Shown here: one piece after another, positions 4,151-21,917 of the stretch | How the letters are laid out: every line of letters starts with the position of its first letter | How positions within the stretch are numbered: position 1 is the stretch's first letter | Assembly (NCBI GenBank): GCA_963702005.1 | Contig: OY969696.1 | Location: 3,488,001-3,552,000, forward strand | DNA from: Candidatus Aminicenantes bacterium | Lineage (GTDB): Bacteria; Acidobacteriota; Aminicenantia; Aminicenantales; JAFGBC01 | DNA length: 64,000 bases | Direction of reading: 5' to 3' | The notes under the pieces: generated by a model | Told to the model about the DNA's origin: nothing | The model's database searches: none | What the model saw: only the letters and a program-made list of their open reading frames with translations | Program-made: the position numbers and the translations under genes

Positions 4151-5554
4151 CTATTCGTTTCCGATCCCCAGCGCCTTCATTTTATTAAAGAGCGTCTTCC
4201 GGCTGATCCTAAGCGCTTTCGCGGCCAGGGTCCGGTTCCCGCCGGCCTCGCGGAGCGCCTTTTCGATCAGGACTTTTTCCGCCCGCTCCGCGGCCGCCTG
4301 CGCGGCGCCCCGCAGCGATTCGCCGGAAGAGCGGCCCTCCGCTCGCGGACCCGGACGCTTCTCTGCCTCGGCCGCGGCGAACCCGCCCCGGATCCTCGCC
4401 GGCAGCCTCCTCTCATCCAAGATAAGATCGTCGCTGAGGACCATCGATTCGTAGATCACGTTCTCCAACTCGCGGACATTGCCCGGCCAGGCATAGCCCA
4501 GGAGGGCTTCCAGCGCGTCCGGCGCAACGCCGCGGATCTCCTTCTTCAGCTCGGTCGCGTACTTGTTGAAAAAATGCTCGCAGAGAAGGGGGATGTCCTC
4601 CCGGCGGTCGCGCAGCGGCGGGAGATGGAGGGAGAGGACCGCCAGCCTGAAATAGAGGTCCTCCCGGAAGGCGCCTTTCCGGACCTCTTCGTCCAGGACC
4701 TTGTTGGTGGCGGCGATCACCCGGACGTCGATCGGGATGGTCTTCGTCCCGCCGACCTTGACGATCTCCCGTTCGCCCAGGACGCGCAGGAGCTTGACCT
4801 GGGCGTCCTGAGACAGGTCGCCGATTTCGTCGAGGAAGACCGTCCCTCTCTGGGCGAGCTCAAACTTGCCCGTCGTTTCCGTCCTGGCATCCGTAAACGC
4901 GCCCTTGCTGTGGCCGAAGAATTCGGACTCGATCAGGTCGCGCGGGATAGCGCCGCAATTGACCACGACGAAGGGGCCGTCTTTCCGCGGCCCGGCGAAG
5001 TGGATGGCGCGCGCGGCAAGCTCTTTACCCGTGCCGCTCTCCCCCGTGATCAGGACGGTCCCGTCGACGCGGGCGATCCGGTCCATCATCTGGAAGATCG
5101 AGTTCATCCTGGCGCTGGTGCCGACGATGCTGGAGAAGCGGTAGCGGGAAAGGAGCTCGCTTTTGAGGACGGCGACCTCGGCCTCCAACTTCCGGACCTC
5201 GAGTGCCCGGGAGATGAGGAGGAGCAGCTCCTCGTTGTTGACGGGCTTTTCCAGGTAGGCGTAGGCGCCCAGCTTGGTCGCCTCGACGGCATTTTTGATC
5301 GTCCCGAAGGCGGTGATGATGATGATCCGGCAGGCCGGAGAGACCCGCTGCACGCCGGCCAGGACGTCCAATCCCGACATGTCGGGCAGGTTCATGTCCA
5401 GCAGCAAGAGGTCGGGGGCGAAGGTCCCGACCTTTCTAAGCCCCTCGGCTCCGTCCGCCGCGCTCTCGGTAAGATAGCCCTTCTCCTCGAGCAGAAGGCT
5501 GAAGATGTCGCGGATGTTCTTTTCGTCGTCGATGATCAGGATCTTGAATCGCAT
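4151..5554 (-). CDS. Sigma54-dependent response regulator (NtrC/AtoC family enhancer-binding protein)
   Basis: Receiver domain (IIDDE, LLDMNLP), Walker A GESGTGKE, GAFTDA loop, FLDEIG, WPGNVREL, Fis-type HTH. Confidence 0.95.
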   Translation of the reverse strand: MRFKILIIDDEKNIRDIFSLLLEEKGYLTESAADGAEGLRKVGTFAPDLLLLDMNLPDMSGLDVLAGVQRVSPACRIIIITAFGTIKNAVEATKLGAYAYLEKPVNNEELLLLISRALEVRKLEAEVAVLKSELLSRYRFSSIVGTSARMNSIFQMMDRIARVDGTVLITGESGTGKELAARAIHFAGPRKDGPFVVVNCGAIPRDLIESEFFGHSKGAFTDARTETTGKFELAQRGTVFLDEIGDLSQDAQVKLLRVLGEREIVKVGGTKTIPIDVRVIAATNKVLDEEVRKGAFREDLYFRLAVLSLHLPPLRDRREDIPLLCEHFFNKYATELKKEIRGVAPDALEALLGYAWPGNVRELENVIYESMVLSDDLILDERRLPARIRGGFAAAEAEKRPGPRAEGRSSGESLRGAAQAAAERAEKVLIEKALREAGGNRTLAAKALRISRKTLFNKMKALGIGNE

Positions 5555-5569
5555 GGCTCACCTCCGGCT

Positions 5570-6814
5570 TCAGCCCAGGGGAAGGCTGACCAAAATCGTC
5601 GTCCCCTGACCGGTCTTGCTCTTAACCTCGATATCGCCGCGGTGGGATTTGATGATGTTGTAGCAGATTGAAAGCCCCAGCCCGGTTCCGCTTTTTTTCG
5701 TCGTATAAAAGGGGTCGAAGATTCGATCCAGGTTCTCCTCGGGAATCCCATCGCCCGTATCGGTCACGGCGACGACGGCCTTCGGGCCGTCCTTCCGCAG
5801 CGCCTCCACTTTGAGCTCGCCCCCGCCCGGCATGGCCTGGATCGCGTTGAGGAAGACGTTAAGGAAGAGCTGCTTGAGCTGGGAACGATCCCCCCGGACG
5901 GTCAGCGCCTCGTCCGGGAACTCCCGCCGCAGCACGACCTGCTGCTTGCGGGCCTGGAACGAGACCAGGTCCAGACCTTCCTCCAGGGTCTCGACGAGGT
6001 TGTACCGCTCCTGGACGGTCTCGGAGGGACGGGAGAACGACAGCAGGGCCGAGACGATCTCGTTGATCCGGGCCGTCTCCTGGAGGGCCGCGCTGATCAG
6101 CTTGAGGGAGGCCTCGTCGGCGCTCTTCGCTTCCAGGTACTGAAGGGACGACCGGATGGCCGTCAGCGGGTTGCGGATCTCGTGAGCGGCGCCCGCGGCC
6201 AGCTCCCCGATAGTCGCCAGCCGGTCGGCCCGCGACATGCGCCGGAAGCGCTCCCGCTGTTCCTTGAACAGGAGGGCATTCTCCAGGGCGATCCCCGCCT
6301 GGGGCAGGATCGAGGAGATGAAGGAGATCTCGAGCTTGGCGAACCGCGCCCCGCCCGTCTTGGCGCCGACCAGAAGCACTCCGATCAGCCGGTTCATGGA
6401 CATCAGCGGGAAACAGATCTCGATGCCCAGGGCTTCGAGCATTTCGTTTTCCTTCCCGGTCAGGTATTCGAGGACGCCGGGGCGCTGGCGGACCTCCAGG
6501 TAGGTCTCGTTGACCTTGAGCCATTTGACCAGGCGCGAGTTCCGCGGGAAGAAGACCCGACGAGCCTCGTCCTCGGACAGCCCGGCGGAGGCGGAGGACG
6601 CGAATCGCCCCGTGTCCGCGTCGTAGATGAGGAGGATCAGCGTCCGGACCGGACAGACCTCCTTGATCTTGCCCAGGAAATTGCCGGCGATGTTGTCGAA
6701 ATCCTCGATCAGGTTGAGGCTGTCCTCGAATTCCCGGAAGACGAGGAGGGGAAAAGATTCGTCCCCCGTCTTCCCGGTCAAACGGCGGAGGAAGGCTCGG
6801 ATCGCTTTCTTCAT
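5570..6814 (-). CDS. Sensor histidine kinase with N-terminal GAF domain and no obvious TM segment
   Basis: H-box AHEIRNPL, N-box NAIQAM, DTGDGI, FDPFYTTK, GTGLGL; probable start MKKAIR at 6814. Confidence 0.92.
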   Translation of the reverse strand: MKKAIRAFLRRLTGKTGDESFPLLVFREFEDSLNLIEDFDNIAGNFLGKIKEVCPVRTLILLIYDADTGRFASSASAGLSEDEARRVFFPRNSRLVKWLKVNETYLEVRQRPGVLEYLTGKENEMLEALGIEICFPLMSMNRLIGVLLVGAKTGGARFAKLEISFISSILPQAGIALENALLFKEQRERFRRMSRADRLATIGELAAGAAHEIRNPLTAIRSSLQYLEAKSADEASLKLISAALQETARINEIVSALLSFSRPSETVQERYNLVETLEEGLDLVSFQARKQQVVLRREFPDEALTVRGDRSQLKQLFLNVFLNAIQAMPGGGELKVEALRKDGPKAVVAVTDTGDGIPEENLDRIFDPFYTTKKSGTGLGLSICYNIIKSHRGDIEVKSKTGQGTTILVSLPLG

Positions 6815-6916
6815 GGTTTCGATCCTTAGGACATTATACAAAGATTACGGGGAAATCAAAAAGCCCTGCTGCCACGAGCCGAAATGAAACAAGCAAAACC
6901 TTCAACGCCGGCTGAA

Positions 6917-7432
6917 TCAGGGCTTAGGACGACGTTGTCTTGATCCGGGTTTCCCGGTTGCCGCCGTCGACGCGCCCCTTATGCGTTTCAACTCCAAGAG
7001 GAGTTCAAGGTCGGCTTTATCCTGGAGCCGGGTTGACCGCTTTTTCAACCGTATCAGGTCGCCCAACCCGATGAAATAGACACGCGCTCGGCCGAAGAAG
7101 CCGCGATTCTTGTTTGCCCAGATTCGGCTGAAGGAGCAACCTTCGAGCCCGGTCAGCAGGTCGATTCTCAAGGGCTCGAACCCGAGCTGAATGATCCGCT
7201 TTTTCGCCTGAAAATCCCTCTCGGACAAGTTGAGACTGGCAAAACCAAACTCATTTAGAGCCCGCACGACCTTGCGGCTGTTGTCCCGGCTGGGCTCGAT
7301 TAGGATATCGATATCCTTTGTGTATCGCGGCCTGACATAAAAAGCCAAGGCATAAGATCCGACGATGCAACAGCGGATCTTATACTTGTTGAATAATTCG
7401 AACAACTCTTCGTAATCTTTTTCGACTTTCAT
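6917..7432 (-). CDS. Minimal nucleotidyltransferase-family protein (putative toxin-antitoxin component)
   Basis: IVGSYALAFY.PRYTKDIDI nucleotidyltransferase motif and C-terminal R.QDKADL; probable start MKVEKDY at 7432. Confidence 0.8.
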   Translation of the reverse strand: MKVEKDYEELFELFNKYKIRCCIVGSYALAFYVRPRYTKDIDILIEPSRDNSRKVVRALNEFGFASLNLSERDFQAKKRIIQLGFEPLRIDLLTGLEGCSFSRIWANKNRGFFGRARVYFIGLGDLIRLKKRSTRLQDKADLELLLELKRIRGASTAATGKPGSRQRRPKP

Positions 7433-7586
7433 GGCCCGGGCCTTTGTCAAGCCCATGCTTCTGTTCCCTTAAAACCTGAACCGTCTCGAGTCTCTCTTGA
7501 GGACTCATCGACAGATAATATGAATGGTCGAATCTCCGGGCTTCTCGGAAGGTTGAGAACGACTGGAGCCAAATCTTTTTTGCCAT
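7380..7586 (-). CDS. Small protein overlapping the nucleotidyltransferase (putative antitoxin partner)
   Basis: YYLSMSPQERLETVQVLR..RLRRVVRI pattern typical of small genes found upstream of such nucleotidyltransferases; 53-nt overlap. Confidence 0.65.
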   Translation of the reverse strand: MAKKIWLQSFSTFREARRFDHSYYLSMSPQERLETVQVLREQKHGLDKGPGHESRKRLRRVVRIIQQV

Positions 7587-7672
7587 TGAAGCTATTATAA
7601 ATCAACGCCGTTCATGGGGCAATTTTTATGAAATCCCTCCTCTCATATACTGGGAAAGGCTTTCCCTGATGA

Positions 7673-9070
7673 TCACCTGACGTCGTAGCGGATAAAGAGG
7701 ACGAAACTCAGCAGGAACGCGGCGCAGGCATAGACGACGTTGATGACCAGGTAAACCAGCGCGGGCTTGAGCCTTTCGGCGAACGACATGGATTTCTCGG
7801 TGAATTGGGGGACGGTGTCGAAGGCGACCGGCCTGCGGGTCGTCGAGACGTCTTCGCGGGGGTTAGACCAGTGCGGGCTCATGGGGTCTCGGGCATCAAA
7901 AGCCTTGAAGAAAGCCAGAAGCTGGGCTTGATAGACGTGGAAGTCGTCCCAGACCTTCCGGAAGCGCGGATATCCGCCGCCGACGACCGCCTCGGGCAGG
8001 AACTGAAATACCGTCACCGGCGAGACTGCGGTCAGGAATCGGGTCCGCTCGAATTGGCGGAATTGACTTTGAATATAGGCGTCTCGAATGTCCATCTCGG
8101 CGTCGAGGAGTTTCCTCTGCAGGTTGGCCCGGAGCTCGTGCTGGGGCAGGAAGGGATTGCCGTACTGCATCATCCAGCTCCCCGGCGGGGCATTATTGCT
8201 CAGATCGGCCTGGACGGCCTGAATCCTGTCCTCGACCGATTTCGAGGTCTCGATCCCGAAGGCACGTTTGGCAAGAAAGGCGGAGGAGTTGGGAATGACG
8301 ACGGCGAACAGCAGCCAGAAGGATAGGGCCAGCAGCAGGCTGACATTGGAACTGCGCGACACCACGGAACACAGCAGGCCGACCGCGGCCAGGACGGCGG
8401 CCATCAAGGCCGAGACGATGACGAATCCCAGCGTCTCCAGAAAAAGCGCCCAGGCCATCGCAACCCGGCCGGACAGCAGGACGACCAGAAGGCTCAGCAG
8501 GATGCCTGGGACAACGATCGCCAGGGAAGCGAGGAGGGCGCTCAGGTATTTGCCGACGAGGAGCGTCCCCCGCGAGCAGGAATTGGATAGGGTTAGGGCC
8601 AGCGTCTTCGACTCCTTCTCCCCCGAGACGGCGTCGAAGGTGAAGAGCAGCGTTACGAAGCTCAGGATCATGGCCACGATGAACGACCAGTTCAGCTCGT
8701 CGAAGGCGTTGAGAAAGGGGTTGCTGCTGCCGCTCTTGTTCTGGAAGGAAAAGACGCTATAGGCGTTAAAGACGACGGCGTTGGGCAGGTACTTCTCCTT
8801 GCCGTCGGAGATGAAAGCGTTGTCCCGCGGCCTCATCGGGTATGTCCATGGGGTCACGGCCAGAGCAGTGGCGTTGGCTTCGGCCTGGGCTTTCATCTCG
8901 GCTAAGAATTTCGACTGGGCCTCACGATAGCGGGTGAGCCCGGCCTCATGGCTATTGACGAACGAAAGCGACCCGGCGACGAACACGACCAGGATAAGGG
9001 CGAGCGAGATCTGGAAGCGCAAGCTGTAGAGGCTGTGCTGAACCTCCCGCTTCAGGACGGTCTTCAGCAT
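7673..9070 (-). CDS. ABC-2 type transporter permease, paralog 1 (ends RYDVR)
   Basis: KRE N-terminal motif, DAVSGEKESKTL..LSN, GKY, IPN, SP; multiple TMs with two large extracytoplasmic loops. Confidence 0.9.
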   Translation of the reverse strand: MLKTVLKREVQHSLYSLRFQISLALILVVFVAGSLSFVNSHEAGLTRYREAQSKFLAEMKAQAEANATALAVTPWTYPMRPRDNAFISDGKEKYLPNAVVFNAYSVFSFQNKSGSSNPFLNAFDELNWSFIVAMILSFVTLLFTFDAVSGEKESKTLALTLSNSCSRGTLLVGKYLSALLASLAIVVPGILLSLLVVLLSGRVAMAWALFLETLGFVIVSALMAAVLAAVGLLCSVVSRSSNVSLLLALSFWLLFAVVIPNSSAFLAKRAFGIETSKSVEDRIQAVQADLSNNAPPGSWMMQYGNPFLPQHELRANLQRKLLDAEMDIRDAYIQSQFRQFERTRFLTAVSPVTVFQFLPEAVVGGGYPRFRKVWDDFHVYQAQLLAFFKAFDARDPMSPHWSNPREDVSTTRRPVAFDTVPQFTEKSMSFAERLKPALVYLVINVVYACAAFLLSFVLFIRYDVR

Positions 9071-9073
9071 GGC

Positions 9074-10681
9074 TCACCTCACGTCGTAGCGGATGAAGGC
9101 GATATAGCCCAGATAAAAGAGCAGGATCGCCTCGACGAGCAGGATTCCGATCCGAGCGATGGAATTTTCCACGCCCTCTAATAAAGACACCGCGCGGTCC
9201 AAGAAGCGGGGCATATCTGAGATGTCGAGAAAGGGGAAATCGTCCGGCTGGTCGCCGCGGAGCTTGACCTTGTTGAGTCTTTGCCATTGGACCCAAAAAT
9301 CCTTCTCCCCGGTGGCCCAATCATCATAAGCCTTCATCGTCTTGAATTCGCCCCCGGTCCTGGCCGCGACGAGCCAGTCGGCCGTCTTCATGTCCTGGGG
9401 AGACGTCGGCGTAAAGTACCGAAATGAAGCAAAAATATTCTTCCCCTGCAAATAGCGGATGAACGTCTCCCGATATTGGCGCATCCGGTCCATGACCTTC
9501 TCATAGGAATGTCCATCCGTCGCGCAGATGGCCGAGGCGATCGTCCGGAAGACTCCCGCGGGCGAAATCAGGGCGATTCGCTCAGCAATCTGCGCCTGGC
9601 GGGTCAAGCTGTCCAGATAAGCTTTTTGGGAGGCCCATTTCTTTTCGGCGTAATCGAGCCGCAGGGGCTCCGAAATCAGCGACCGCTGACGCTCCCTTTC
9701 AAAAAACGAAGCTGTGCACCCATACATTTCCTTATGGCCGTCGTCCCCTCCGATGTTATACCAGCCCATGTCCCAATCGGTCGTCGGCAGAGTCTTTTCC
9801 CGGTCTCGGATCGTTCGGTTGAATTCCCTGTCCAGGTCGTCGATCACGCGAGCCAGGTTCTCGCGGGATTGGACCCGGACGAAGCTCTCGGCGAAATAGG
9901 CAGACAGGTTGGGGACGATGAAGACGAAGAAGACCCAGACGAACAGGCAGAGGACGAGGCTGGTGACGGATGTCTTGGACCGGGCCGAGATGAGGAGCCC
10001 GACGAAGATGAAAACGGCCAGGTAGAGCAGGCTGACGCCGGAGATGAGCGCGATCCGTCCCCAGTCGAGCGCCGAAAAGGACAGATCCTTCGACGCCAGG
10101 ACCAGGAGGGCGCTCAGCAAGAAGCAAAAGATGAGCACGGGCAGCATCGTGACCAGGATGCCTAGGACCTTGCCGGCCAGGAGTCGCGAGCGTCCGATGG
10201 AGTTGGCCATCTGCATCCGCAAGGTGCCGTCCTCCTTCTCGCGGGTGAAGACGTCATAGCTGAAGAGGAGGGCCAGCAGAGAGAAGACGATGGCCGCGAT
10301 ATCGACGAAATCGACCGAGAAGAAGGACGCTAGAAAGGGGTTGTCCCTGACGGCCGTCGTCCCTTCCGCCCACCACGGCTTTTCCCCGAGGAGGATCCTC
10401 ACCCGGTGGCCGACCTGCCCCCGGATGCCCCGGCAGAAGATGCCGAGCGGCTCGGGGGGAAGTACGATCTCGGGCCGCAGGGCCGAATAAACACGGACTT
10501 CCCTGGTCGCCTTTTCCGCCGCGTCCCTCTCGGTCTGGTAGATGGCGGCCTGGTCGCGGTAGTCGTCGATGTTGATCAGGATGCTGAAGGGGATCAGGAC
10601 GAGGCAGAGGAGGAAGCCGATGACGAAGCGGGCGGAGAGGAGGTTGTTGAGGAACTCTTTCCTGACGATTTGAGAAACCAT
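9074..10681 (-). CDS. ABC-2 type transporter permease, paralog 2 (ends RYDVR)
   Basis: MVSQIVRKEF start with AAGGAG RBS; REKEDGTLR, VPN and ISP motifs. Confidence 0.9.
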   Translation of the reverse strand: MVSQIVRKEFLNNLLSARFVIGFLLCLVLIPFSILINIDDYRDQAAIYQTERDAAEKATREVRVYSALRPEIVLPPEPLGIFCRGIRGQVGHRVRILLGEKPWWAEGTTAVRDNPFLASFFSVDFVDIAAIVFSLLALLFSYDVFTREKEDGTLRMQMANSIGRSRLLAGKVLGILVTMLPVLIFCFLLSALLVLASKDLSFSALDWGRIALISGVSLLYLAVFIFVGLLISARSKTSVTSLVLCLFVWVFFVFIVPNLSAYFAESFVRVQSRENLARVIDDLDREFNRTIRDREKTLPTTDWDMGWYNIGGDDGHKEMYGCTASFFERERQRSLISEPLRLDYAEKKWASQKAYLDSLTRQAQIAERIALISPAGVFRTIASAICATDGHSYEKVMDRMRQYRETFIRYLQGKNIFASFRYFTPTSPQDMKTADWLVAARTGGEFKTMKAYDDWATGEKDFWVQWQRLNKVKLRGDQPDDFPFLDISDMPRFLDRAVSLLEGVENSIARIGILLVEAILLFYLGYIAFIRYDVR

Positions 10682-10735
10682 ATCCGCGTCTCCTTGCCTG
10701 TGCCGGCGGGATCGAAGTCCGCCGTATTTTTGAAT

Positions 10736-10753
10736 CTGCATTTTTTATGCCAA
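10736..10753 (-). promoter_or_regulatory. Sigma54 -24/-12 promoter, leftward (permeases 2 and 1)
   Basis: Minus strand TTGGCATAAAAAATGCAG = GG-N10-GC, about 55 nt upstream of ATG 10681. Confidence 0.75.
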
Positions 10754-10757
10754 GTCG

Positions 10758-10836
10758 AATTCTGGGGACACACGACTTATTTCATAATCTCTAAAAGAGA
10801 AATAAAGGGAGAAATAAGTCGTGTGTCCCCAGAATT
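10758..10836. repeat. Perfect 26-bp inverted repeat with 27-bp spacer (REPIN/MITE-like, family C)
   Basis: AATTCTGGGGACACACGACTTATTTC (10758-10783) and its exact reverse complement (10811-10836). Confidence 0.9.
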
Positions 10837-10904
10837 AGCGGCCTTTATGCCTGTGCCGGACAAGAAGACGCCCGGGAGAAGGTCCCGCGCATCTACGGCT
10901 GATT

Positions 10905-10942: not shown

Positions 10943-11004
10943 AAAACGCGCTTCTAAAAAGCCACTTCCCCATCCTTCGCCCCCTGGACTCGCCGTTTTA
11001 TTCC

Positions 11005-11021
11005 TTGGCACGAAACGTGCA
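11005..11021 (+). promoter_or_regulatory. Sigma54 -24/-12 promoter, rightward (tolC operon)
   Basis: TTGGCACGAAACGTGCA, a near-consensus match to TGGCACG-N4-TTGCA, about 44 nt upstream of ATG 11065. Confidence 0.8.
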
Positions 11022-11064
11022 TTATTAGCGCGAGATGACATTCATCGACCGCGGAGAATCGACT

Positions 11065-12679
11065 ATGCGCAATAAAAAACCAATACTCGGCCGTTTGGCT
11101 CATATGATTCTATTCATCCCAATGCTACTCCCCTTCTCCGCGGCCGCGCAGGACAAGCCGGCCGCCCCGGCGGTCTCGCCGGAGAAATCTCCTCTCGCGC
11201 TCACCCTGGACGAGTGCATCGTCAGGGCGGTTAAAAAGAACCTGGGCGTGGCGGTTCAAATCACCACCTCCCGGATGGCCGACCTCGCCCTGACTCGGGC
11301 CGGAGAAAAATTCCTCCCTTCGCTCTTCTTCGACTTCAGCAGCCAGAAAACGAACTCGGCTTCTTACTCCTGGATCCAATCGGCCGACGTCCTGTCCCAA
11401 TCCGCGAAGAGCTACGGGGGGAGCCTCAGCCAGCTCATTCCCCTCGGCGGCAGGCTTGCCGTGTCCCTGGGGGCCGGCCGGAGCGAATCGAATACGCAGT
11501 TCCAGATTATCAACCCCAGCTACAGCGGCTCGCTGTCGTTCTCGCTGACCCAGCCCCTCCTCAGGGATTTCGGATGGGAGACGAGCCGGAGAGACATCCT
11601 GGTCGCCCGGAACAACAAGGACATCGCTCAAAACGACCTCAAGTCCACGCTTCTCGATACGGTTTACTCGGTCGAGCAGGCCTACTGGGAGCTGGTCTTC
11701 CGCATCGAGGCGCTCAAGGTCCGGCGCCAGTCCCTCAAGCTGGCCGAGGACCTCCTCGAAAAAAACCGGAAGGAGATCGAGATCGGGACGAAGGCGCCCA
11801 AGGAGATCCTGACCGCCCAGGCCGCCGTAGCCGCCCGCAAGGCCGATATCCTTCAGGCGGAGCAGATGGTCAAGGACTACGCCGACATGCTGCGCGGCCT
11901 TATCAACCTTCCCTTCGACAACGACGGCGGCGGAGATATCGCCCCCATCGACAGGCCCGGCTTCGCCAAGCGGGAGGTCGGTCTCGACGATGCCCTGGCC
12001 TTGGCCCTGAAGAACCGGCCCGACCTCCAGTCCTTCGCCCTCGAGATCAAGAACAGGGAGCTGGATTATTCCTACGCCAAGAACCAGACGCTTCCCGCCC
12101 TCGACCTCAAGGCCGACTATTGGAGCCCCGGCCTTTCGGGCGATCGGATCCTGTACCTCGACGATAACCCTTTGACCGGAGTCGTCCTGGGCAAGGTCCC
12201 GGGCGGCGCGTCCCTGGCCATGCGCGACGCCCTCAACTTCAAATACAGGAATTGGTCGGTCGCTCTGTCTCTGACCATCCCCCTGAGCTCCGTCCTCACC
12301 CGGGCGGCCCAGGCCGAGGCCAAAGCCGGCCTCGACCGGCAGATCGCCAGGATGAAAAGCCAGGAGCTAAGCGCCGTCTTGGAGATCCGGGCCGCCGTCC
12401 GGGCCGTCCAGACGGACTACGAGCGGGTCGGCGCCTACAAGGCCGCCCGCGAGCTGGCCGAGCAGAAGCTGGCCGCGGAAGAGGCCAAGCTCAAGGCCGG
12501 GCTGAGCAACAACTTCTTCGTCCTCCAGTACCAGCAGGACCTGGCCAGCGCCGGGACGGCCGAGCTGCGGGCCGTCATCGACTATACGCTCTCCCTCGAC
12601 CAGGCTGGACAAGGCCACGGGTGTCAGCCTGGACAAGCGGAACATCGCTTCGCTGACGCCACGGAGGTCGGATCGATGA
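11065..12679 (+). CDS. TolC family outer membrane efflux protein (one +1 indel near 12601)
   Basis: LTLDECIVRAVKKN, LTQPLL, VEQAYWEL, ALKNRPDL, AEEAKLKAGLS; removing one base gives the ending LDRLDKATGVSLDKRNI..RRSDR* overlapping the next ATG. Confidence 0.88.
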
Positions 12680-14172
12680 AAAAGATCGCATCGCATTCTC
12701 CTCGCCCTCGTTGTGATCGGAGCGGCCCTGGGCGGTCCGGCCGCCGCTCAGGAAGGCCAGTCCCAGACGATGAAGCTCCTGACGCCTGAAAAAGGCCCAG
12801 CTCCATGCTCGAAAAGACCAAGGGCGACTTCGACCGCTCGCTCAAGCTCAAGGAACAGGGCCTGACATCCGAGCAGGAGTTCGCCCTGGTCCGGACGGCC
12901 TACCTCCAGGCCCAGGTCGATTACCAGCAGGCCCTGATCAACTTCATGGGCAGCGAGGCCCGCATCTCGGTGGCCAGCGCGGTCAAGTTCCAGGACGCGG
13001 GCGGCAAGAAGTTCGTCCGGGTCACCCTCCGCTACTCCTCCAAGGAGCTCAAGGAGCTGGCCAAGCTGAACATCAAGCGCCGAGGACCTCTTCCCGCTCG
13101 ACTTCATGAAGGAGCTCAAGGACGTCTACGGTCTCGCTGAAGTCCGAGGGCAAGATCGTCTCCGACCCCTACGAGAAGACCATCGCCTCGCCTGCCGCTC
13201 GAATCGGAGCGGGACGTGACCTTCCAGCTTCTCAAGGACGTCGAGAACCTCGACGTCAACGTCTTCTATTCGGGAAAGAACGAGACGACCTCGGTCTACC
13301 TCCAGAAGGGCGTCAGCGCCAACATCGTGACCATCAACTCGGCCCAGTTCTCGCAGGAAGCCGACCTGGAGAGCCACGGCCACCTTCGACCTGTCGCTGG
13401 AGAAATTCTCGGGCGAGGCCAACGTCTTCAAGCTGGAGATCGCCAACCTGCCCCACCAGATCAATTACGAGTTCAGCGATCCCGACGACGGGCGCCCGGC
13501 TGTCCCAGATCAAGTTCACCGAGGGCGTCACCAGCATGAAGCTGTCCCTCAAGCTCTATCTCCCCAAGAACGCCGACGCCCAGGTCGTCATCGACAAGCC
13601 GATCACCTTCTACGCCCTGGCCCTCGACAACGAGCGGGCGGGCGCGCTCCAGGACCTGCTGGCCAAAAAGCCCGAAATCGGGCTCAAGGACATCGAAGCC
13701 CTCAAGGCCGGCAGCGTGCGGCTCGAGCTCATCCCGCGCGGCGTGGGCAAGATCGAGGTCCAGGCCGTCAACCTCTACCACGAGATCAAGGTCGGCGAGG
13801 CTGTCGCGATGGAAGTCAGGGTCAGCAACGCCGGGACCCGCAAGCTCAACAATATCCGGCGTCTTCGCCGACCTGCCGCTCAACTGGCGGTCCGAGATCG
13901 AGCCCGACCTGATCGCCTCGCTCGACCAGAACAAGGAGCAGGTCGTCACGATCAAGTTCCTGCCGCCGGCCGACGTCGCCGTCGGCGATTATGAGCCGAA
14001 GATCAAGACCGAGTGCAGCGCCGACAACCGGAAGGTCGAGTCCGAGGACAAGATCGTCCGCGTCCACGTCGCCTCGAAGACGAACGTCCTGGGCATCAGC
14101 CTGCTGGTGCTCCTGCTGGTCGGCCTGCTGGTCGGGATCGTCGTCTTCGGCATCAAGCTGACCCGGCGCTGA
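12676..14172 (+). CDS. Secreted, C-terminally anchored protein: alpha-hairpin + Ig-like/NEW3 domains + TM (about 495 aa after removing nine +1 indels)
   Basis: Manual reconstruction: MKKIASILLALVVIGAALGGPAAA|QEGQ..LEKTKGDFDRSLKLKEQGLTSEQEF..NAGTRKLNNI..LPLNWRSEIEP..PPADVAVGDYE..NVLGISLLVLLLVGLLVGIVVFGIKLTRR*; GGAGG RBS; pieces visible in ORFs 12805, 13216 and 13536. Confidence 0.8.
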
Positions 14173-14209
14173 ACCCGCCGCGTCGAACGTACGAAACAAG
14201 GAGGACATC

Positions 14210-14949
14210 ATGGCTCAAACGAATCCCATCCTTAAGGCCGACGACCTGTCCAAGCGCTACGAGGACGGCGTCCTGGCTCTCGACCACCTCAACCTGGACG
14301 TGCACGGGGGCGAGGTCTACTGCCTGCTCGGCGCCAACGGCGCGGGAAAGACGACGACGATCAACCTTTTCCTGAACTTCATCCCGCCCACGACGGGAAC
14401 CTGCTACATCACCGGCATCGACGTCACCAAGGACCCGCTCGAGGCGAAAAAGTACGTCGCCTTCGTCTCGGAGAACGTCATGCTCTACGGCAATTTCACG
14501 GCCCGCCAGAACCTGGACTTCTTCGCCAAGCTGGGCGGGAAGCCCGACCTGACCAAGGAGCATTATTATCAGGTCATGCGGCGCGTCTCGCTCCAGGAGA
14601 AAGCCTTCGAGCAGCGGGTCAAGACCTTTTCCAAAGGCATGCGGCAAAAGCTCGGAATCTCGATCGCCGTCATCAAGGACGCGCCGGCCATCCTGCTCGA
14701 CGAGCCGACCTCGGGCCTCGACCCCAAAGCGGCCGAGGAGTTCCTGGAGATCCTGGACGAGCTGAAGAAAGAAAACAAGGCGATCCTTATGTCCACCCAC
14801 GACATCTTCCGGGCCAAGGAGATCGGCGACCGGGTCGGGATCATGAAGGAAGGCCGGCTGGTCATGGAGCGGACCCGCGGGAGCTTCAGTACGAGGACCT
14901 GGTCAAGATCTACATCGACTACATGAAGTCCGAACCCCTGACGGCTTAG
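14210..14949 (+). CDS. ABC transporter ATP-binding protein (one -1 indel near 14879)
   Basis: GANGAGKTT, FSKGMRQK, LLDEPTSGLDP, STHD; natural ending ELQYEDLVKIYIDYMKSEPLTA* lies in the shifted frame. Confidence 0.93.
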
Positions 14950-14952
14950 TCC

Positions 14953-16395
14953 ATGCTGAAAACCATCGTTCGCAAAGAGCTTCTCGAGAACATCTTCAGC
15001 TACCGCTTTCCGCTGTTCGCCCTCATCTGCATCGTCCTCATTCCGTTGGGCATGTTCGTCAATAACGCCCAGTATTCCAAGCGGCTCAGGGATTACGGCG
15101 AGCAGGTGCGCCTGGCGGACGAAGGGGCCTCGGGGCTCACGATGCAGGACGTCATGGCCGGACGGGTGACCCTCAAGGGCTTCCGCCGGCCCGCGCCGCT
15201 GTCGATATTCGCCCAGGGCTTCGAGAACACCTTGCCCCGCTACTACCAATTCACGCAGGACGGCTTCGCTCAAGGCGAATCGGCCAGCGGCGACGAGTCC
15301 TTTCTTTCGACCCAGGGCAAGTTCGATTTCGTCTTCCTGGTCCAGATGGTCATCAGCCTGATCGGCCTGCTGTTTGCCTCGGATGTCATCGCGGGCGAGA
15401 AGGAGTCGGGCACGCTGCGGGCCATGCTCTCGAACCGCTTGCCGCGGGACGCCGTTCTGATCGGCAAGATCGCCGGCGGCTTCCTGGCCCTGGCGGCGTC
15501 CTTCCTGGTCGCCCTCCTGCTGGGCGTCCTGATCCTTCTGCCGGGAGGTTTTCCGCTCTTCAGCGGCGACGGCTTGGCCCGGATTCTCATCCTGGCTCTG
15601 GCCTCCCTGTTCTTCATGCTGATCTACTACACGATCGGGACGATGGTCTCGACCAGTTCCTCCAAAACGAGGACATCGCTGGTGGCCATTCTTCTCATCT
15701 GGTCGGGCTTCCAGCTGGTTATTCCCAAGTTGAGCGATATGGCCGCCGCGCTGATCTATCCGGTGCGTACGGAAACCGAAGTCTCGCTCGAAAAATCCCT
15801 CCTGATCAATTCGATCGAGACCGAAACGGCGAAAGAACTGGGCCGCCAGTACGACCTGATCTTCGGAAGCGCGGCCGCGGGCGTCGCGGACGACGTGAAC
15901 TCGCCCGAGAGGAAGAAATGGGATCCGCTCAGAGACGACATCCAGCTGCGCGCCCGGGAGAGGAAGGCCCAGCAGCTCCAGACGATCGACGAGACCTTCC
16001 AGATGCGGAAGCGGCGGCAGCAAAACCTGGCCGTGAATCTGTCCTTGATCTCGCCCAGCGCGGCTTTCGGCCGCTTCGCCGCCGACGTCTGCGCGACGGG
16101 CGAGCTGGCGCGCGCGAAATACCAGGAGGCCGTCCGCTCCCATCAAAAGGCCCTCGACAACGAGCTCTTCAGCAAAGTCAAGCGGACCCTGATGATGCAC
16201 GCGGATGGCCGCATGACGATGATGTTTTCCGCCCAGCCGGTGGACCCCAAAAATCTGCCGAAATTTACGATCGGCGTCGCTTCGCTGGGGGACACCTTCA
16301 AGGAAAACGGGCGCAGCCTTCTGGCGCTGGCTTTCTGGCTGATCGCTCCTTTCGCCTTCGCCTATATCCGATTCTTGAAATACGACGTCCGATAG
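14953..16395 (+). CDS. ABC-2 type transporter permease, paralog 3 (ends KYDVR)
   Basis: MLKTIVRKEL, AGEKESGTLR, IGKI, VIP, ISP. Confidence 0.9.
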   Translation: MLKTIVRKELLENIFSYRFPLFALICIVLIPLGMFVNNAQYSKRLRDYGEQVRLADEGASGLTMQDVMAGRVTLKGFRRPAPLSIFAQGFENTLPRYYQFTQDGFAQGESASGDESFLSTQGKFDFVFLVQMVISLIGLLFASDVIAGEKESGTLRAMLSNRLPRDAVLIGKIAGGFLALAASFLVALLLGVLILLPGGFPLFSGDGLARILILALASLFFMLIYYTIGTMVSTSSSKTRTSLVAILLIWSGFQLVIPKLSDMAAALIYPVRTETEVSLEKSLLINSIETETAKELGRQYDLIFGSAAAGVADDVNSPERKKWDPLRDDIQLRARERKAQQLQTIDETFQMRKRRQQNLAVNLSLISPSAAFGRFAADVCATGELARAKYQEAVRSHQKALDNELFSKVKRTLMMHADGRMTMMFSAQPVDPKNLPKFTIGVASLGDTFKENGRSLLALAFWLIAPFAFAYIRFLKYDVR

Positions 16396-16402
16396 TGATC
16401 CG

Positions 16403-17722: not shown

Positions 17723-17726
17723 TGCC

Positions 17727-19133
17727 ATGAAGACGATCCTCCGCCGCGAATTTCTGGACCATATCCAAAGCCTGCAATTCATGGCCCTTCTAGCCTTGGC
17801 CGTTATTCTGTTCGCAGGCAACGGCCTTATCTTCGTTAAGTCCTATTCGCAGCGGATCGACGCCTACCAAAAGAATCTGGCTTTCATGCAGGAGCAGGAA
17901 TGGAAGAGCACCGTGCGCCTCCAGCTCTACAGGCGTCCCAGCTCGCTGCTTTTTATCGCAGAAGGTGGGGATATCATAAGGCCTTCCGAATACTATCTCC
18001 TTCCTAAAGGAGCCCTCTCGGCCGGAGAGCAGAATCTTAGGACGTTCAAGATGCCGACCGTGCCGACGCTGGACTGGTCCTTCATCATCGGCACCTTGTT
18101 CAGCCTCTATACCATACTCTTAGGCTACAGCACCGTGTCATGGGAGAGGGAACAGGGGACACTTCGGTTGGTTCTCGCCAATTCACTCGGCCGGGTCCAC
18201 TTGCTCACGGCCAAATACTTGTCCGTCCTTTCGGTCATCGCGGTTCCGCTCCTGGCCGGCACCCTCGTTAGCCTGATCATCATCGGGACGCTCGTCCCGC
18301 AGGCCATGACGCTGGCCAACGTTTCCAGGATCGTCCTGGTTCTTCTCCTGGCCCTGGCGTACGTTTCCCTTTTCGCGTTCTTGAGCCTCCTCTTTTCGTC
18401 GATCATCTCCCGATCATCGCTTGTCCTGCTGACACTCCTCGCCATATGGGTGCTTTTTGCCATCGTCATCCCCAGCTCTTCCCTAGTTCTGGTCGACAAG
18501 CTTTCGTCGGCCCCCCGCGAGATCCAGGCAGCCCGGATGTTCGAGCCCATGGTTCAGAAAGAAGTGTGGGAAAAAATCGATGCGATCGTTGCCGGGGCCG
18601 GGCGGGGCGAATACAAGACGGAGGAGGAGGTCAGGGCAGGCACGGACCACGCTTTCGAGGAGGGTCAGAACCGGGTCAAACAATTCTACGAAGATTTCGG
18701 AAAATCTGAGAAAGCCCGAGCCGCCCAGGCTAAAAACCTGTCGCGGCTCTCCCCCCTGGCCTTATTCCAATATGCCTCGGAGGATATCGTCCAGTCAGGG
18801 GACGGCGGAGAAGATGAGTTTTTGAGGCAGGTTCGGGAATATTCCCGCATTTATGACGCGTATATCCAGAAGAAACTCGGCAAGATCATAGTGACTTCGG
18901 ATTGGTCGTTTTCTAAGAATATTGGCTTTCATGGGAAAACCATCCGCATCGAATCGCCCGAAGCCCTGGAATACGAGGGGGATAAGTCCGACTTCCCGGT
19001 CTTCAGCGAGCGGCGGCCGTCCCTGAGCAAGGGACTCAAGAGCGCCCTGGGCGACCTGGCCGGGCTCATTCTCTGGAACATCGTCCTGGCCGGCTTGGCT
19101 TTTTCAGCCTTCATCAGGACAGACGTGAGATGA
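17727..19133 (+). CDS. ABC-2 type transporter permease, paralog 5 (ends RTDVR)
   Basis: MKTILRREF, SWEREQGTLR, AKY, IPS, LSP. Confidence 0.9.
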   Translation: MKTILRREFLDHIQSLQFMALLALAVILFAGNGLIFVKSYSQRIDAYQKNLAFMQEQEWKSTVRLQLYRRPSSLLFIAEGGDIIRPSEYYLLPKGALSAGEQNLRTFKMPTVPTLDWSFIIGTLFSLYTILLGYSTVSWEREQGTLRLVLANSLGRVHLLTAKYLSVLSVIAVPLLAGTLVSLIIIGTLVPQAMTLANVSRIVLVLLLALAYVSLFAFLSLLFSSIISRSSLVLLTLLAIWVLFAIVIPSSSLVLVDKLSSAPREIQAARMFEPMVQKEVWEKIDAIVAGAGRGEYKTEEEVRAGTDHAFEEGQNRVKQFYEDFGKSEKARAAQAKNLSRLSPLALFQYASEDIVQSGDGGEDEFLRQVREYSRIYDAYIQKKLGKIIVTSDWSFSKNIGFHGKTIRIESPEALEYEGDKSDFPVFSERRPSLSKGLKSALGDLAGLILWNIVLAGLAFSAFIRTDVR

Positions 19134-19236
19134 TTCGCAAAGACATGAAGGAAGCGCTTTTTTACTATCTCCGGAGACCGCCCGTCGCTCCCGGGCTGCA
19201 ACCCGGGTTGAACGGTTCCGGGAAAGAGGTGCGGGC

Positions 19237-20472
19237 ATGATCGGAACCATCGTTCGCAAGGAGATCGCCGCCAACCTCCTCAGCTACAAGTTCTTTATCG
19301 TCATGCTACTGGCTTCCCTGCTCGTCTTCACCAGCCTGTTCGTCATGGTCAGGGATTTCAAGGGACGGCAGGCCGACTATCAACTCAACAAAGCCAAGCC
19401 CGGAGAGCCGATCGCCATCATCCCGCCCAATCCCCTGTCCATCTTCGCCAAGGGCCTGGACGACGCCATGACCCGCTCCTTCGGAGTCGGCATCACCGGT
19501 ATCTACGTCCAGGCCGGCCAGCAGTCCGGCAACATCATCTTTTCCTTTTTCCCTTCGCCCGATTTCGTCTACGTCGTCAAGGTCGTGCTGTCGCTGGTGG
19601 CCCTTCTGTTCGGCTTCGACCAAATCAGCCGGGAGAAGGAAGCGGGCACCCTGAAACTGGTGTTCGCCAATTCGCTCTCCCGGGCCTCCGTCCTGGCCGG
19701 CAAGTGGCTCGGCAACTTCCTGAGCCTGGCCGTCCCCTTCCTGCTGGTGACCATACTGGGGATCGCCCTGATGAGCCTCGATCCCGCTGTGCGCCTCTCC
19801 GGATCGGGGCTCGGGCGGCTGGCGTTGTTGCTCGCAACAAGCCTCATCTACGTCGCCCTGTTCTTAAGCCTCGGCATTTTCATCTCCACGGTCACCCGGC
19901 GGTCCGCTTCATCTCTGGTTGTTCTCCTCTTCATCTGGTCGCTGCTAGTCTTCATCCTGCCCAACCTGGGCACGCTGCTGGCCCGCCAATTCGTCGACGT
20001 TCCGTCCGTCCGCGCCCTGAGCGAGAAGCGGGAGCAGATCTGGACGCGGGAAGTCCTCATGCGCTATACCGATAAAACCGACAACTGGGACGCCCGGATC
20101 AAAAACATGAACGCCGAATTCGACAAGATGGAGGAAGACTACCGCAACAAGTTCGACCGCCTGATCCGATTGTCTAAGAACATCAACCGGATCTCGCCGG
20201 CGGCCAGCTTCGTCTACGCCGCCACCGAGATCGCCGGCACCGGGATCGGCGAGGAAGGCTTGCTTAAAAGCGAAGTCATCCGCTATAAAAACCGGTTCTT
20301 GGAGGACATCCGGTCCGGGATCAAGGGACACGCCGCGTTCAGCTACCGTTACCGTTCCGTCGGACGCGTATTGGCCGAGGGGAGCCTGTTCGATATCGCC
20401 TGGCTCCTGGTCTTCAATATCGTCTTTTTCGCCGCGGGCTACGCCGCGGTCGTGCGCTACGACGTCAGATAA
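19237..20472 (+). CDS. ABC-2 type transporter permease, paralog 6 (ends RYDVR)
   Basis: MIGTIVRKEI, SREKEAGTLK, GKW, LPN, ISP. Confidence 0.9.
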   Translation: MIGTIVRKEIAANLLSYKFFIVMLLASLLVFTSLFVMVRDFKGRQADYQLNKAKPGEPIAIIPPNPLSIFAKGLDDAMTRSFGVGITGIYVQAGQQSGNIIFSFFPSPDFVYVVKVVLSLVALLFGFDQISREKEAGTLKLVFANSLSRASVLAGKWLGNFLSLAVPFLLVTILGIALMSLDPAVRLSGSGLGRLALLLATSLIYVALFLSLGIFISTVTRRSASSLVVLLFIWSLLVFILPNLGTLLARQFVDVPSVRALSEKREQIWTREVLMRYTDKTDNWDARIKNMNAEFDKMEEDYRNKFDRLIRLSKNINRISPAASFVYAATEIAGTGIGEEGLLKSEVIRYKNRFLEDIRSGIKGHAAFSYRYRSVGRVLAEGSLFDIAWLLVFNIVFFAAGYAAVVRYDVR

Positions 20473-20474
20473 GG

Positions 20475-21917
20475 ATGACAGCTATGATCCCTATCCTCGT
20501 CATGAAAGAAATCCGCAACCACCTCCTGTCGTTCCGGTTCCTGGTGACATTCGTCCTTCTCCTGGTCATCGTCCCAGTCACAACCTTGATCCTGACCAAC
20601 GATTACATACGGAAACAGGACGATTATTCCCGGCGCCAGGCCGAGATTCAGAATTACCTAAGCCGCTACGCCCATTTCAACCGGATCGGAAACGTGATCG
20701 AGCCTTCCCAGCCGCCCGTTCCGTTCTATGCGCTCGTCCGGGGGCTGTCGGCCGACGTCAATATCAACGCCTTCTACAACGACCCTCTGCCTGTCATGTT
20801 TCCGCTGCTGGACTTGACGTTCATCGTCGCCATTCTCCTCAGCCTGGCCGCCCTGGTCTTCGCCTACGACTCCCTATCCGGCGAAAAGGAAGACGGGACC
20901 CTGAAGCTCATGCTGGCCAACGGCCTGGCCCGGTCCAAGATCATCGCCGCCAAGGTTTTGGGAGGAACGGCGACCTTGCTCATCCCCTTCCTGGTTTCGC
21001 TGGCCGTCGGCCTGATCATCATCCTGCTCAACCCGAGGGTGGGCTGGAAAGGGTCGGATTGGGGCGCGCTGGGGATGATCGCGATCGGGGCCGTCGTTTA
21101 TTTTACCCTCTTCACCTGCCTGGGGATCTTCATCTCCTCGCGCCACCAGTCGAGCTCCTCGTCGATCATGACCTCGCTCTTTGTCTGGGTTCTCGCCGTC
21201 CTGGTCGTCCCCAACCTCAGCCCTTACCTGGCCTCGCTCCTCCGTCCGACGCCCTCCCGGATCATGATCAACCGGGAGGTCCAGCGCATCACCCAGGATG
21301 AACGCGACGAGCTCGGCCGGATAATCCAGAAGGAAAGAACGGCGGAGGTTCTCAAGGAATATCCCGTCCTGGCTCCCGTTTTCAGGATGTCCGAACAGGA
21401 AATCCTGGACGCCATCAAGAAGGACCCCGCCTTCGCTCGCGCCTATGAAGCTTTGCGAAAGACGATCGAGGCGGTTTGGCGCGAAGCTAACAGGATCCAG
21501 GGCGAAAAAGCCAAGGTCTTGACAGAAGACTTGGACCGAAAGGAAAAGGCGCAGACTCGGCTCTCCGTCCTCCTGTCCCTGAGCTCCCCCATGGCCGCCT
21601 TCTCTTATTTGACCACGGACCTCTCCAACACCGGGATGAGGAATGAAATTCATTTTAGCGAGCTGGCAAGGGGATGGGGTCAGGCCTACGAAGACTTCGC
21701 GACCCAAAAAATGGAGGAGCTCAGGAAAAAGGATCCGACCATGGATGTCTGGAACTCGCCGGTCGACGTCCGCGATATGCCGCGCTTCCAATACAAGGAA
21801 GAAGCGCTGACGGGACGGATCAAGGCCGTTCTGGCGCCGTTAGCCGTCCTGGCCGTCCTCTCCATCGTTCTGTTCGGCGCGGCCTACGCTTCCTTCATCC
21901 GCTACGACGTCCGCTGA
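20475..21917 (+). CDS. ABC-2 type transporter permease, paralog 7 (ends RYDVR)
   Basis: LVMKEI, SGEKEDGTLK, AKV, VPN, SSP. Confidence 0.9.
   Translation: MTAMIPILVMKEIRNHLLSFRFLVTFVLLLVIVPVTTLILTNDYIRKQDDYSRRQAEIQNYLSRYAHFNRIGNVIEPSQPPVPFYALVRGLSADVNINAFYNDPLPVMFPLLDLTFIVAILLSLAALVFAYDSLSGEKEDGTLKLMLANGLARSKIIAAKVLGGTATLLIPFLVSLAVGLIIILLNPRVGWKGSDWGALGMIAIGAVVYFTLFTCLGIFISSRHQSSSSSIMTSLFVWVLAVLVVPNLSPYLASLLRPTPSRIMINREVQRITQDERDELGRIIQKERTAEVLKEYPVLAPVFRMSEQEILDAIKKDPAFARAYEALRKTIEAVWREANRIQGEKAKVLTEDLDRKEKAQTRLSVLLSLSSPMAAFSYLTTDLSNTGMRNEIHFSELARGWGQAYEDFATQKMEELRKKDPTMDVWNSPVDVRDMPRFQYKEEALTGRIKAVLAPLAVLAVLSIVLFGAAYASFIRYDVR

Follow-up and report, generated by a model that had tools for sequence, protein, structure and literature searches.

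Which machine is built from seven divergent permeases, a single ATPase and an outer-membrane channel is the question raised by two divergent operons at positions 4151 to 21917 of a 64-kb stretch of DNA (64,000 nucleotides, hereafter the window) on contig OY969696.1 of a Candidatus Aminicenantes genome. An initial annotation of the same DNA had read them as an undescribed, sigma-54-controlled trans-envelope exporter with one ATP-binding cassette (ABC) ATPase, seven ABC-2 permeases, TolC and an atypical adaptor, and all of the genes that it listed in the two operons are found, each at the coordinates assigned to it. The system is real, conserved among related Aminicenantes and undescribed. The reading that we prefer, and that we hold to be evenly poised between right and wrong, is an inducible TolC-coupled type V ABC exporter in which a single ATPase is common to alternative permease dimers. 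The gene map of the locus, which combines a listing of open reading frames (ORFs) with Pfam scans of 47 ORFs across the window, is given below, with protein lengths in amino acids (aa) and E-values after the family names.

4151-5554, minus strand: NtrC-type sigma-54 enhancer-binding response regulator (EBP), 467 aa; Response_reg 6e-28, Sigma54_activat 6.4e-67, AAA_lid_14, HTH_8
5570-6841, minus strand: soluble histidine kinase, 423 aa, with a weak GAF-like N-terminal domain; HisKA 1.5e-13, HATPase_c 1.1e-27
6917-7456, minus strand: nucleotidyltransferase-like ORF, 179 aa; DUF6036, NTP_transf_5 and AbiEii below cut-off
7673-9070, minus strand: permease P1, 465 aa, second gene of the P2-P1 pair; PF12679 1.6e-34; orthogroup of 28
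9074-10681, minus strand: permease P2, 535 aa from the ATG at 10681 (the 555-aa ORF extends to 10741); PF12679 1.9e-31, DUF3526 1.7e-7
10738-10752, minus strand: sigma-54 -24/-12 element of the P2-P1 operon, TGGCAT-N5-ATGC; mirror image of the plus-strand element
11006-11021, plus strand: sigma-54 -24/-12 element of the TolC operon, TGGCAC-N5-GTGCA; 14 nt 5' of the TolC ATG, one consensus mismatch
11035-12680, plus strand, 3' end approximate (indels): TolC-family outer-membrane factor; PF02321 6e-36, in two stretches
12676-14172, plus strand: atypical periplasmic adaptor (predicted) with a NEW3 domain; split by nine single-base insertions, no long open frame at about 12680-14170
14210-14949, plus strand: ABC ATPase (open frame 14210-14926, frameshift near 14879, true stop 14947-14949); ABC_tran 1.2e-25
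14953-16395, plus strand: permease P3, 480 aa, unpaired type; PF12679 5.6e-30; orthogroup of 25, in a superclade that includes the solo permease P8
16403-17722, plus strand: permease P4, 439 aa, first gene of the P4-P5 pair; PF12679 6e-30
17727-19133, plus strand: permease P5, 468 aa, second gene of the P4-P5 pair; PF12679 3.4e-27
19237-20472, plus strand: permease P6, 411 aa, first gene of the core P6-P7 pair; PF12679 2e-24; orthogroup of 39
20475-21917, plus strand: permease P7, 480 aa, second gene of the core pair; PF12679 8.7e-31

Seven permeases and one ATPase

All seven permeases belong to PF12679 (ABC2_membrane_2), for which each scores above the cut-off (E-values of 2e-24 to 1.6e-34, 86.8-119.9 bits against 27.2 bits); PF12040/DUF3526 matches five of the seven, two of them above its own cut-off, and PF02687, the family of FtsX-type permeases with four transmembrane (TM) segments, matches none. 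A search of all six frames of the window with the permease profile returned exactly these seven and no further copy. The divergence noted in the initial annotation is borne out by pairwise identities of 21-31%, and so are the three shared motifs, E9 after K/R, the E-K/R-x-x-G/K-T-L loop (E151 to T156-L157) and the terminal D-V/L-R, which are invariant or nearly so in the alignment. The two large loops that had been described in each permease are likewise a common property, since the hydropathy profiles have the same layout in all seven: TM1, a loop of 60-85 residues, TM2 to TM5, a large loop of 130-240 residues, and TM6. The AlphaFold2 (AF2) model of P7, built from 142 sequences (predicted local distance difference test, pLDDT, 94.1; predicted template modelling score, pTM, 0.89), is all-helical and consists of an N-terminal surface helix, a TM1 prolonged to residue 64, TM2 to TM5 (114-256), a long periplasmic helical domain (257-444) that contains a bundle of long helices (262-419), and TM6 (445-476). 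Chains of NosY are the best solved matches of the permeases, both in a Foldseek search with the P7 model (TMt 0.64-0.72) and in profile searches (E-value of 1e-11), and the best NCBIfam match of six of the seven is GldF (TIGR03518), at 22.8-31.1 bits against a cut-off of 288.5 bits.

ABC-2 systems usually have one or two permease genes per ATPase gene, whereas seven stand here beside one. Used as a phmmer query, the ATPase matched only itself in the window, in agreement with the single ATPase of the initial annotation; its best NCBIfam match is of the DrrA type (TIGR01188, 5.2e-56). P2 and P1 form a divergent operon that holds no ATPase and has its own sigma-54 element, and the pair also occurs as a separate, divergent, ATPase-less operon in at least six relatives (L003, L004, L005, L006, L014 and L048).

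These relatives were collected by scanning species-representative genomes with a seven-sequence adaptor alignment, which yielded 108 relatives, of which 80 loci were kept. Since broader alignments had no stretch conserved enough, the 80 loci are close relatives only, all of them Aminicenantes-type metagenome-assembled genomes (MAGs), with titles that mostly name Aminicenantes and in some cases Acidobacteriota, "uncultured Eubacteriales" or "uncultured bacterium". Their genes were annotated by matching stop-to-stop ORFs to profiles of the window genes. The cluster of the window type (type 1) is present in 70 of the 80 loci, so that the neighbourhood search suggested in the initial annotation shows a conserved gene cluster, and TolC belongs to 58 of these 70 (48 of the 52 with at least 3 kb of upstream sequence). 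In most loci the adaptor gene also has an ATPase and permeases next to it. The cluster proper has one ATPase and one adaptor, and the number of permeases varies from two to at least nine, as follows.

Two permeases: L024, L041, L065, L067
Three permeases: L011, L039, L051, L074
Four permeases: L056, L060, L062, L075, L077, L079
Six to eight permeases: L004, L016, L021, L034, L038, L059
At least nine permeases: L005

The permease set is composed of modules. In a tree of 210 full-length permeases (89 ORFs covering less than 85% of the profile, labelled "pf", were left out), the orthogroups number 28 members for P1, 28 for P2, 25 for P3, 14 for P3a, 4 for P3c, 3 for P3d, 10 for P4, 13 for P5, 39 for P6, 34 for P7 and 11 for P8. 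Fixed adjacent pairs recur along the loci, P2 being followed by P1 in 26 of 27 cases, P4 by P5 in 8 of 9, P6 by P7 in 30 of 38 and P3c by P3d in 3 of 4; the exceptions to the core pair are three cases of P6 followed by P2 and five of P6 followed by fragments. In L062 and L079 (about 12.3-18.1 kb in each) the P2-P1 pair sits between P6 and P7, splitting the core pair. P1 is sister to P5 (support of 0.994) and P2 to P4, a double sisterhood that is expected from duplication of a pair. P7 joins the P3 superclade (0.87), and with midpoint rooting P6 branches separately. The permease phylogeny that had been proposed as a check for two alternating subclasses thus recovers them for two of the three pairs, as P2/P4 versus P1/P5, and does not extend them to P6/P7; an alternation of two classes among all permeases was rejected as a general rule. 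The remaining ten loci (type 2: L018, L019, L020, L029, L030, L032, L033, L035, L036 and L073) are of a minimal kind with the order P8-ATPase-adaptor, the adaptor being a paralogue, and a P8-ATPase module also lies convergent to the main cluster in L007, L012, L014 and L063.

To compare the permeases region by region, consensus residues of nine orthogroups were set side by side. At the C-terminal D-V-R the consensus is common to a mean of 8.5 of the nine groups, and in the E-K-E-x-G-T-L loop to a mean of 6.18, with 9 of 22 columns common to at least eight groups; the corresponding means are 3.0 for the first periplasmic loop and 2.76 for the periplasmic helical domain, where 6 of 188 columns are common to at least eight groups. 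Conservation among the permease groups is concentrated, on the modelled topology, on the predicted cytoplasmic face.

An RLS hairpin on a predicted, unfamiliar adaptor

The TolC-family protein is the only one of its kind in the operons, as had been noted. It carries a signal-like segment at residues 16-35, and its match to TIGR01844 (5.4e-29, 101 bits) lies below the 225-bit cut-off of that subfamily. No HlyD/MFP family (MFP, membrane fusion protein) was matched in the Pfam scan of the 47 window ORFs, which agrees with the lack of a standard adaptor gene reported at the outset. A canonical HlyD-type gene (HlyD_D23, 1.2e-28), probably part of a neighbouring pump, recurs some 8.7 kb downstream of the adaptor gene in 12 loci, among them L079 (19571-21025); the window has none.

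The gene next to TolC encodes an adaptor of another kind. With a fragment of 126 residues as the query, 773 proteins were recovered at E-values up to 1e-3; the best 120 of them are mostly 492-500 aa long and carry PF10633 (NEW3), and some bear names that assign them to Aminicenantes MAGs. At the same threshold the family comprises 571 clusters at 50% identity, 199 of them below 1e-30, and for its distant representatives the Atlas gives a hint of Aminicenantota and Zixiibacteriota. The best match, P0001 (494 aa, intact), aligns end to end to segments of the window in frames 2, 1, 2, 3 and 1, with 74-94% identity within the in-frame segments and no internal stops, and the last of the window fragments matches NEW3 PF10633 at 1.3e-6. 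In four intact orthologues the HlyD, biotin-lipoyl and adaptor barrel families of Pfam found no match at E-values up to 1.

The AF2 model of P0001, built with 72 family representatives (pLDDT 93.6, pTM 0.76), begins with a hydrophobic helix (2-17) that we read as signal-peptide-like, with an A-A-A/Q site, and continues with a helical hairpin (helices 21-58 and 64-90), three immunoglobulin (Ig)-like beta-sandwich domains, of which the third is NEW3 (about 94-205, 215-313 and 342-462), and a TM helix at the C terminus (467-493) that ends in R-R. The family profile matches the hairpins of several solved adaptors: TriABC (6VEJ) at 3.6e-4, 4L8J at 0.0068, MexJ at 0.015, ZneB at 0.076, a MacA/MexA chimera at 0.12 and AcrA at 0.21; the N-terminal fragment of the window itself matches CzcB (TIGR00999) at 3.2e-5. 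A Foldseek search of the whole model against the PDB returned, among the matches shown, generic tandem-Ig proteins only and no adaptor, with TM-scores of up to 0.32.

The tip of the hairpin reads R52-x3-L56-x3-G60-L-x-S63, which has the R-x3-L-x6-S spacing of the RLS motif and is also present in the window fragment. According to a review, this motif corresponds in MexA to R119, L123 and S130, and mutations in it abolish binding of the adaptor to the outer-membrane factor (PMC4446572). Among the 72 family representatives the tip residues R, L, G and S occur in 52, 64, 47 and 51, respectively, and the RLS pattern is found in the adaptors of 63 of the 70 type-1 and 9 of the 10 type-2 loci. Fusions between permease and adaptor offer a further link: four of the six proteins found with P0233 (P0233, P0271, P0272 and P0273, of 854-928 aa) combine PF12679 with PF10633, an arrangement that is topologically consistent with a cytoplasmic permease C terminus followed by the first adaptor helix. 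The nearest unfused relative of these fusions bears a name that assigns it to a Holophagales MAG. The earlier description of an atypical adaptor can therefore be made more precise, as a classical type of RLS hairpin on a protein without lipoyl, barrel or membrane-proximal domains, with the reservation that no open frame encodes it in the window.

Sigma-54 elements, the proposed exporter and its rivals

The divergent intergenic region measures 293 nt and carries two mirrored -24/-12 elements. Since the element on the minus strand (TGGCAT-N5-ATGC, 10752-10738) overlaps the first ATG of the P2 ORF, and since the alignment gives the longer P2 an N-terminal overhang of 20 aa relative to its paralogues, P2 probably starts at 10681, which gives a protein of 535 aa. 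Loose matches to the sigma-54 consensus are not enriched window-wide (32 found, 42 expected), and it is therefore their position that carries the argument for promoters. A strict pattern, TGGCA[CT]-N5-N-TGC[AT], searched in 2.52 Mb that comprise the 80 related loci and the window, gave 62 matches, of which 52, spread over 35 loci and the window, lie directly 5' of TolC (23), the adaptor gene (22), P2 (6) or a permease fragment (1); counted over the related loci, the element precedes TolC in 22, the adaptor gene in 22 and P2 in 5. The mirrored elements of the window and the position of 52 of the 62 strict matches at operons of the cluster support the sigma-54 control proposed in the initial annotation. 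The adjoining regulatory genes can be assigned with one reservation: the kinase has HisKA and HATPase_c and the EBP has Response_reg, Sigma54_activat and HTH_8, while the GAF domain that had been ascribed to the kinase is seen only below the curated cut-offs of all three GAF models. Hydropathy gives no convincing TM segment in the kinase, which looks soluble, and no rpoN was seen among the window ORFs scanned.

Between the two sigma-54 elements lies an inverted repeat of 26 nt without mismatches (10758-10783 and 10811-10836, with a spacer of 27 nt). It occurs only once in the window and has no counterpart in the corresponding parts of L003 and L004. It may act as an activator site or a hairpin element, or may have arisen as a small insertion.

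On these grounds we propose the following machine. The soluble kinase would activate the NtrC-type regulator, which would fire the mirrored sigma-54 promoters of the TolC-adaptor-ATPase-P3 to P7 operon and of the P2-P1 operon. The single ATPase would form the nucleotide-binding dimer for several alternative membrane dimers, namely the heterodimers P2/P1, P4/P5 and P6/P7 and probably a P3 homodimer, a sharing that is suggested by the ATPase-less P2-P1 operon, by the single ATPase and by the confinement of conservation to the cytoplasmic face. Common docking elements on that face (an N-terminal K/R-E helix, the E-K-E-x-G-T-L coupling loop and the C-terminal D-V-R) would be recognized by the ATPase, and the divergent periplasmic helical domains would set substrate or partner specificity. 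The adaptor would sit in the inner membrane with its C-terminal helix as anchor, rise on its three Ig-like domains and dock TolC tip-to-tip through the RLS hairpin; the RLS motif, the genetic linkage and the fusions all point to a protein that bridges a permease dimer to TolC. A predicted complex of P7 with adaptor residues 342-494 reached a best score of 0.21 (against a mark of 0.32, with no controls run) and is counted neither for nor against such a contact. The cargo, by analogy with what is generally known of type V exporters, may be amphipathic or hydrophobic molecules or peptides that are taken from the membrane or the periplasm. No conserved substrate or biosynthetic gene was found in the flanks of the 80 loci, in which most of the recurrent families have no Pfam match and may be spurious frames; the initial annotation had likewise seen no substrate gene in the locus.

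Several observations weigh against the exporter. With regard to the motor and its permeases, (i) the count of one ATPase covers the 64-kb window, and other ATPases may be encoded elsewhere in the genome; (ii) the topology used for the regional comparison was read off the AF2 helices and by analogy, with no independent prediction; and (iii) the sisterhood of P2 and P4 has a support of only 0.69, and P6 and P7 fall outside the two permease classes. With regard to the adaptor, (iv) its matches to solved hairpins are weak (3.6e-4 at best and several above 0.01), and outside the hairpin it resembles no solved adaptor; (v) all three RLS residues occur together in 38 of the 72 family representatives; and (vi) the ten type-2 loci have no TolC, nor any EBP, within fetched flanks of up to 10 kb, which indicates that the adaptor does not need a TolC gene linked to it. 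Finally, (vii) the EBP-kinase pair adjoins only about half of the type-1 clusters with at least 6 kb of upstream sequence (23 of 43), and (viii) three core genes are frameshifted in this window.

The last of these points could be explained by decay. A three-frame translation of 12560-14200 yields one protein spread over all three frames, and DNA alignment of the window with seven orthologous loci located 11 window-specific single-base insertions (12599, 12671, 12694, 12786, 12806, 13075, 13128, 13190, 13377, 13480 and 13861) and one deletion after 12646. Three of the indels (12599, after 12646 and 12671) fall at the TolC 3' end or just beyond, and with the frame shift near 14879 in the ATPase the total is 13 single-base indels in 2.3 kb, affecting the adaptor gene and the 3' ends of the TolC and ATPase genes; the initial annotation had been silent on the broken frames of all three. 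If the indels are real, the TolC-adaptor-ATPase core would be dead and the permeases remnants of a decaying cluster, a view favored by the presence of 11 insertions and one deletion within 12599-13861, besides the shift near 14879, and by their location outside long homopolymers. We nevertheless regard it as decidedly unlikely, since the segments between the indels keep their high identity to the intact orthologue and hold no in-frame stops, and since the seven permeases, the regulator and the kinase are all intact, as are further long window ORFs (887, 951 and 1020 aa). Permease, kinase, regulator or TolC genes are also broken into many fragments in the long-read MAG loci L007, L012, L046, L054, L057 and L071, which shows that frameshift errors are common in assemblies of this phylum in the collection, and the similar fragmentation in L007, L046, L054, L057 and L071 speaks against decay here. 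Moreover, the genes in which the indels concentrate, those of the ATPase and the adaptor, rank among the most similar to relatives (identity to L006 of 87.6% for the ATPase, 57-85% for adaptor segments and 57% for TolC), as would fit a mixed-strain consensus error. Given the intact orthologues of about 494 aa, the intact window ORFs and the fragmentation in other MAG loci, the 13 indels are probably a local assembly or consensus error and not a sign of decay.

Two other explanations take the genes to be functional and differ in what they make of them. The locus may encode a machine of mechanotransduction or assembly in the periplasm, as do NosDFY, GldAFG and LolCDE, in which ATP moves the periplasmic helical domains and the Ig-like protein so as to process, insert or release a component of the envelope, TolC being linked loosely or in another way. 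NosY, the only clear solved relative of the permeases, is part of a machine that is no TolC pump, which counts against the exporter and in favor of this alternative; the weak GldF-like matches, the ten adaptor loci that show no TolC in the fetched flanks, an adaptor body of the tandem Ig-like build that many surface or scaffold proteins have, and the want of a conserved substrate gene nearby point in the same direction. Yet TolC accompanies 48 of the 52 informative type-1 clusters and is preceded in 22 related loci by a sigma-54 element of its own, the RLS motif is kept even in nine of the ten loci that lack TolC, no NosD or GldG family was matched among the window ORFs scanned, and the GldF scores of 22-31 bits fall far under the 288.5-bit cut-off, so that we consider such a machine unlikely, though well worth keeping in mind. 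The initial annotation had offered a choice between interchangeable permease pairs on a shared core and one larger hetero-oligomer of all permeases around the ATPase. That all seven genes stand under the same type of promoter and share the same cytoplasmic motifs would suit a single large complex; it fits poorly, however, with the variable copy number of two to at least nine permeases beside one ATPase and one adaptor in the cluster proper, with the gain and loss of permeases as pairs, P2-P1 being found even between P6 and P7 (L062 and L079), and with the solved homologue NosFY, which has a dimer of transmembrane domains according to the PDB titles. We think the large complex very improbable, and it is the shared core with interchangeable pairs that is supported by the single ATPase and the fixed pairs of the relatives.

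Some further features of the window stand apart from these questions. The nucleotidyltransferase-like ORF (6917-7456, minus strand) lies between the kinase and P1, and annotation of the 80 related loci labelled no homologue of it, so that it has the look of a gene inserted into the cluster. Between 36001 and 40000 the G+C content drops to 0.50-0.52, from about 0.60 elsewhere, in a segment that carries a GH99-like gene, a DUF1565 gene and ORFs without a Pfam match and that may be acquired glycan-related DNA. An Rfam scan of the window gave no match.

Comparison with known systems

Nothing matching this system was found in full-text literature searches, in which papers on PF12679 and PF10633 were judged by titles and the starts of abstracts and supplements were not covered; the earlier view that it is undescribed therefore stands. 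What is new is the adaptor family and the expandable set of permeases on one motor. If the exporter reading is true, type V ABC transporters join the tripartite pumps, and the TolC-docking hairpin works on a wholly different scaffold, which bears on the evolution of adaptors and on the minimal needs for the opening of TolC. It would also be a natural case of one nucleotide-binding subunit for many membrane modules, and, with the conserved cytoplasmic motifs mapped, the recognition between an ABC motor and its partners would be open to direct test. With 571 clusters at 50% identity the family is a large one, and it is a conserved feature of Aminicenantes, an abundant uncultured phylum.

With respect to the permeases, the closest solved system is NosDFY(L), which serves in the maturation of nitrous oxide reductase and likewise has a separate ATPase and a periplasmic partner. 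It differs in having no outer-membrane channel, in using a single permease as a homodimer and in its partner, NosD in place of an Ig/hairpin protein; NosY moreover does not have the periplasmic helical insertion of about 190 aa between TM5 and TM6, and no Nos genes were seen among the window ORFs scanned. GldAFG resembles the present locus in combining an ABC-2 permease, an ATPase and a large accessory envelope protein, but the permeases here do not reach the GldF equivalog score and the scan of window ORFs showed no GldG family. To our knowledge, TolC and sigma-54 control are no part of the GldAFG system.

The idea of a tripartite ABC-2 pump is not in itself new, because clusters of ABC-2 genes with an outer-membrane factor and a standard HlyD adaptor are known. 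YbhGFSR of E. coli is an ABC-2 tripartite cluster with a canonical HlyD-type adaptor. An H. pylori system (PMC9570263) is reportedly another of this kind. Clustering of an ABC-2 permease pair, an ATPase, a periplasmic adaptor and an outer-membrane factor is common to these systems and the present one, which departs from their standard HlyD/MFP adaptor and two permeases in having another adaptor family and an expanded, variable permease set. According to a 2021 review, tripartite assemblies are known only with type IV and type VII ABC transporters (PMC8277102).

The adaptor itself shares with classical periplasmic adaptor or membrane fusion proteins (AcrA, MexA, MacA and HlyD) the hairpin with R-x3-L-x6-S and the linkage to an inner-membrane transporter and an outer-membrane factor; the lipoyl, beta-barrel and membrane-proximal domains of that group are absent and three Ig-like domains stand in their place. 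In its working the proposed exporter would be closest to MacAB-TolC (type VII), with which it has in common an ATP-driven inner-membrane ABC transporter with large periplasmic parts, an adaptor whose helical hairpin and RLS motif point at a TolC-family channel, and the grouping of the genes in one cluster. It is nonetheless no member of that type, since the permeases are not of the FtsX type and the adaptor is without three of the four classical domains: the permeases are NosY-like ABC-2 proteins with six TM segments, against the four of the FtsX-type MacB, the ATPase is a separate gene, the body of the adaptor consists of three Ig-like domains and a C-terminal anchor, and there are seven permeases per ATPase. 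We therefore put forward, tentatively and with somewhat less assurance than the exporter reading itself, that the locus may represent, after type I secretion and MacAB, a third structural class among the ABC machines that span the envelope, in which a type V (NosY-like) transporter would be joined to TolC by an adaptor family not recognized before, with an RLS hairpin, an Ig stalk and a C-terminal anchor, and one ATPase would be the common motor of two to at least nine plug-in permease modules that evolve by duplication and loss of pairs.

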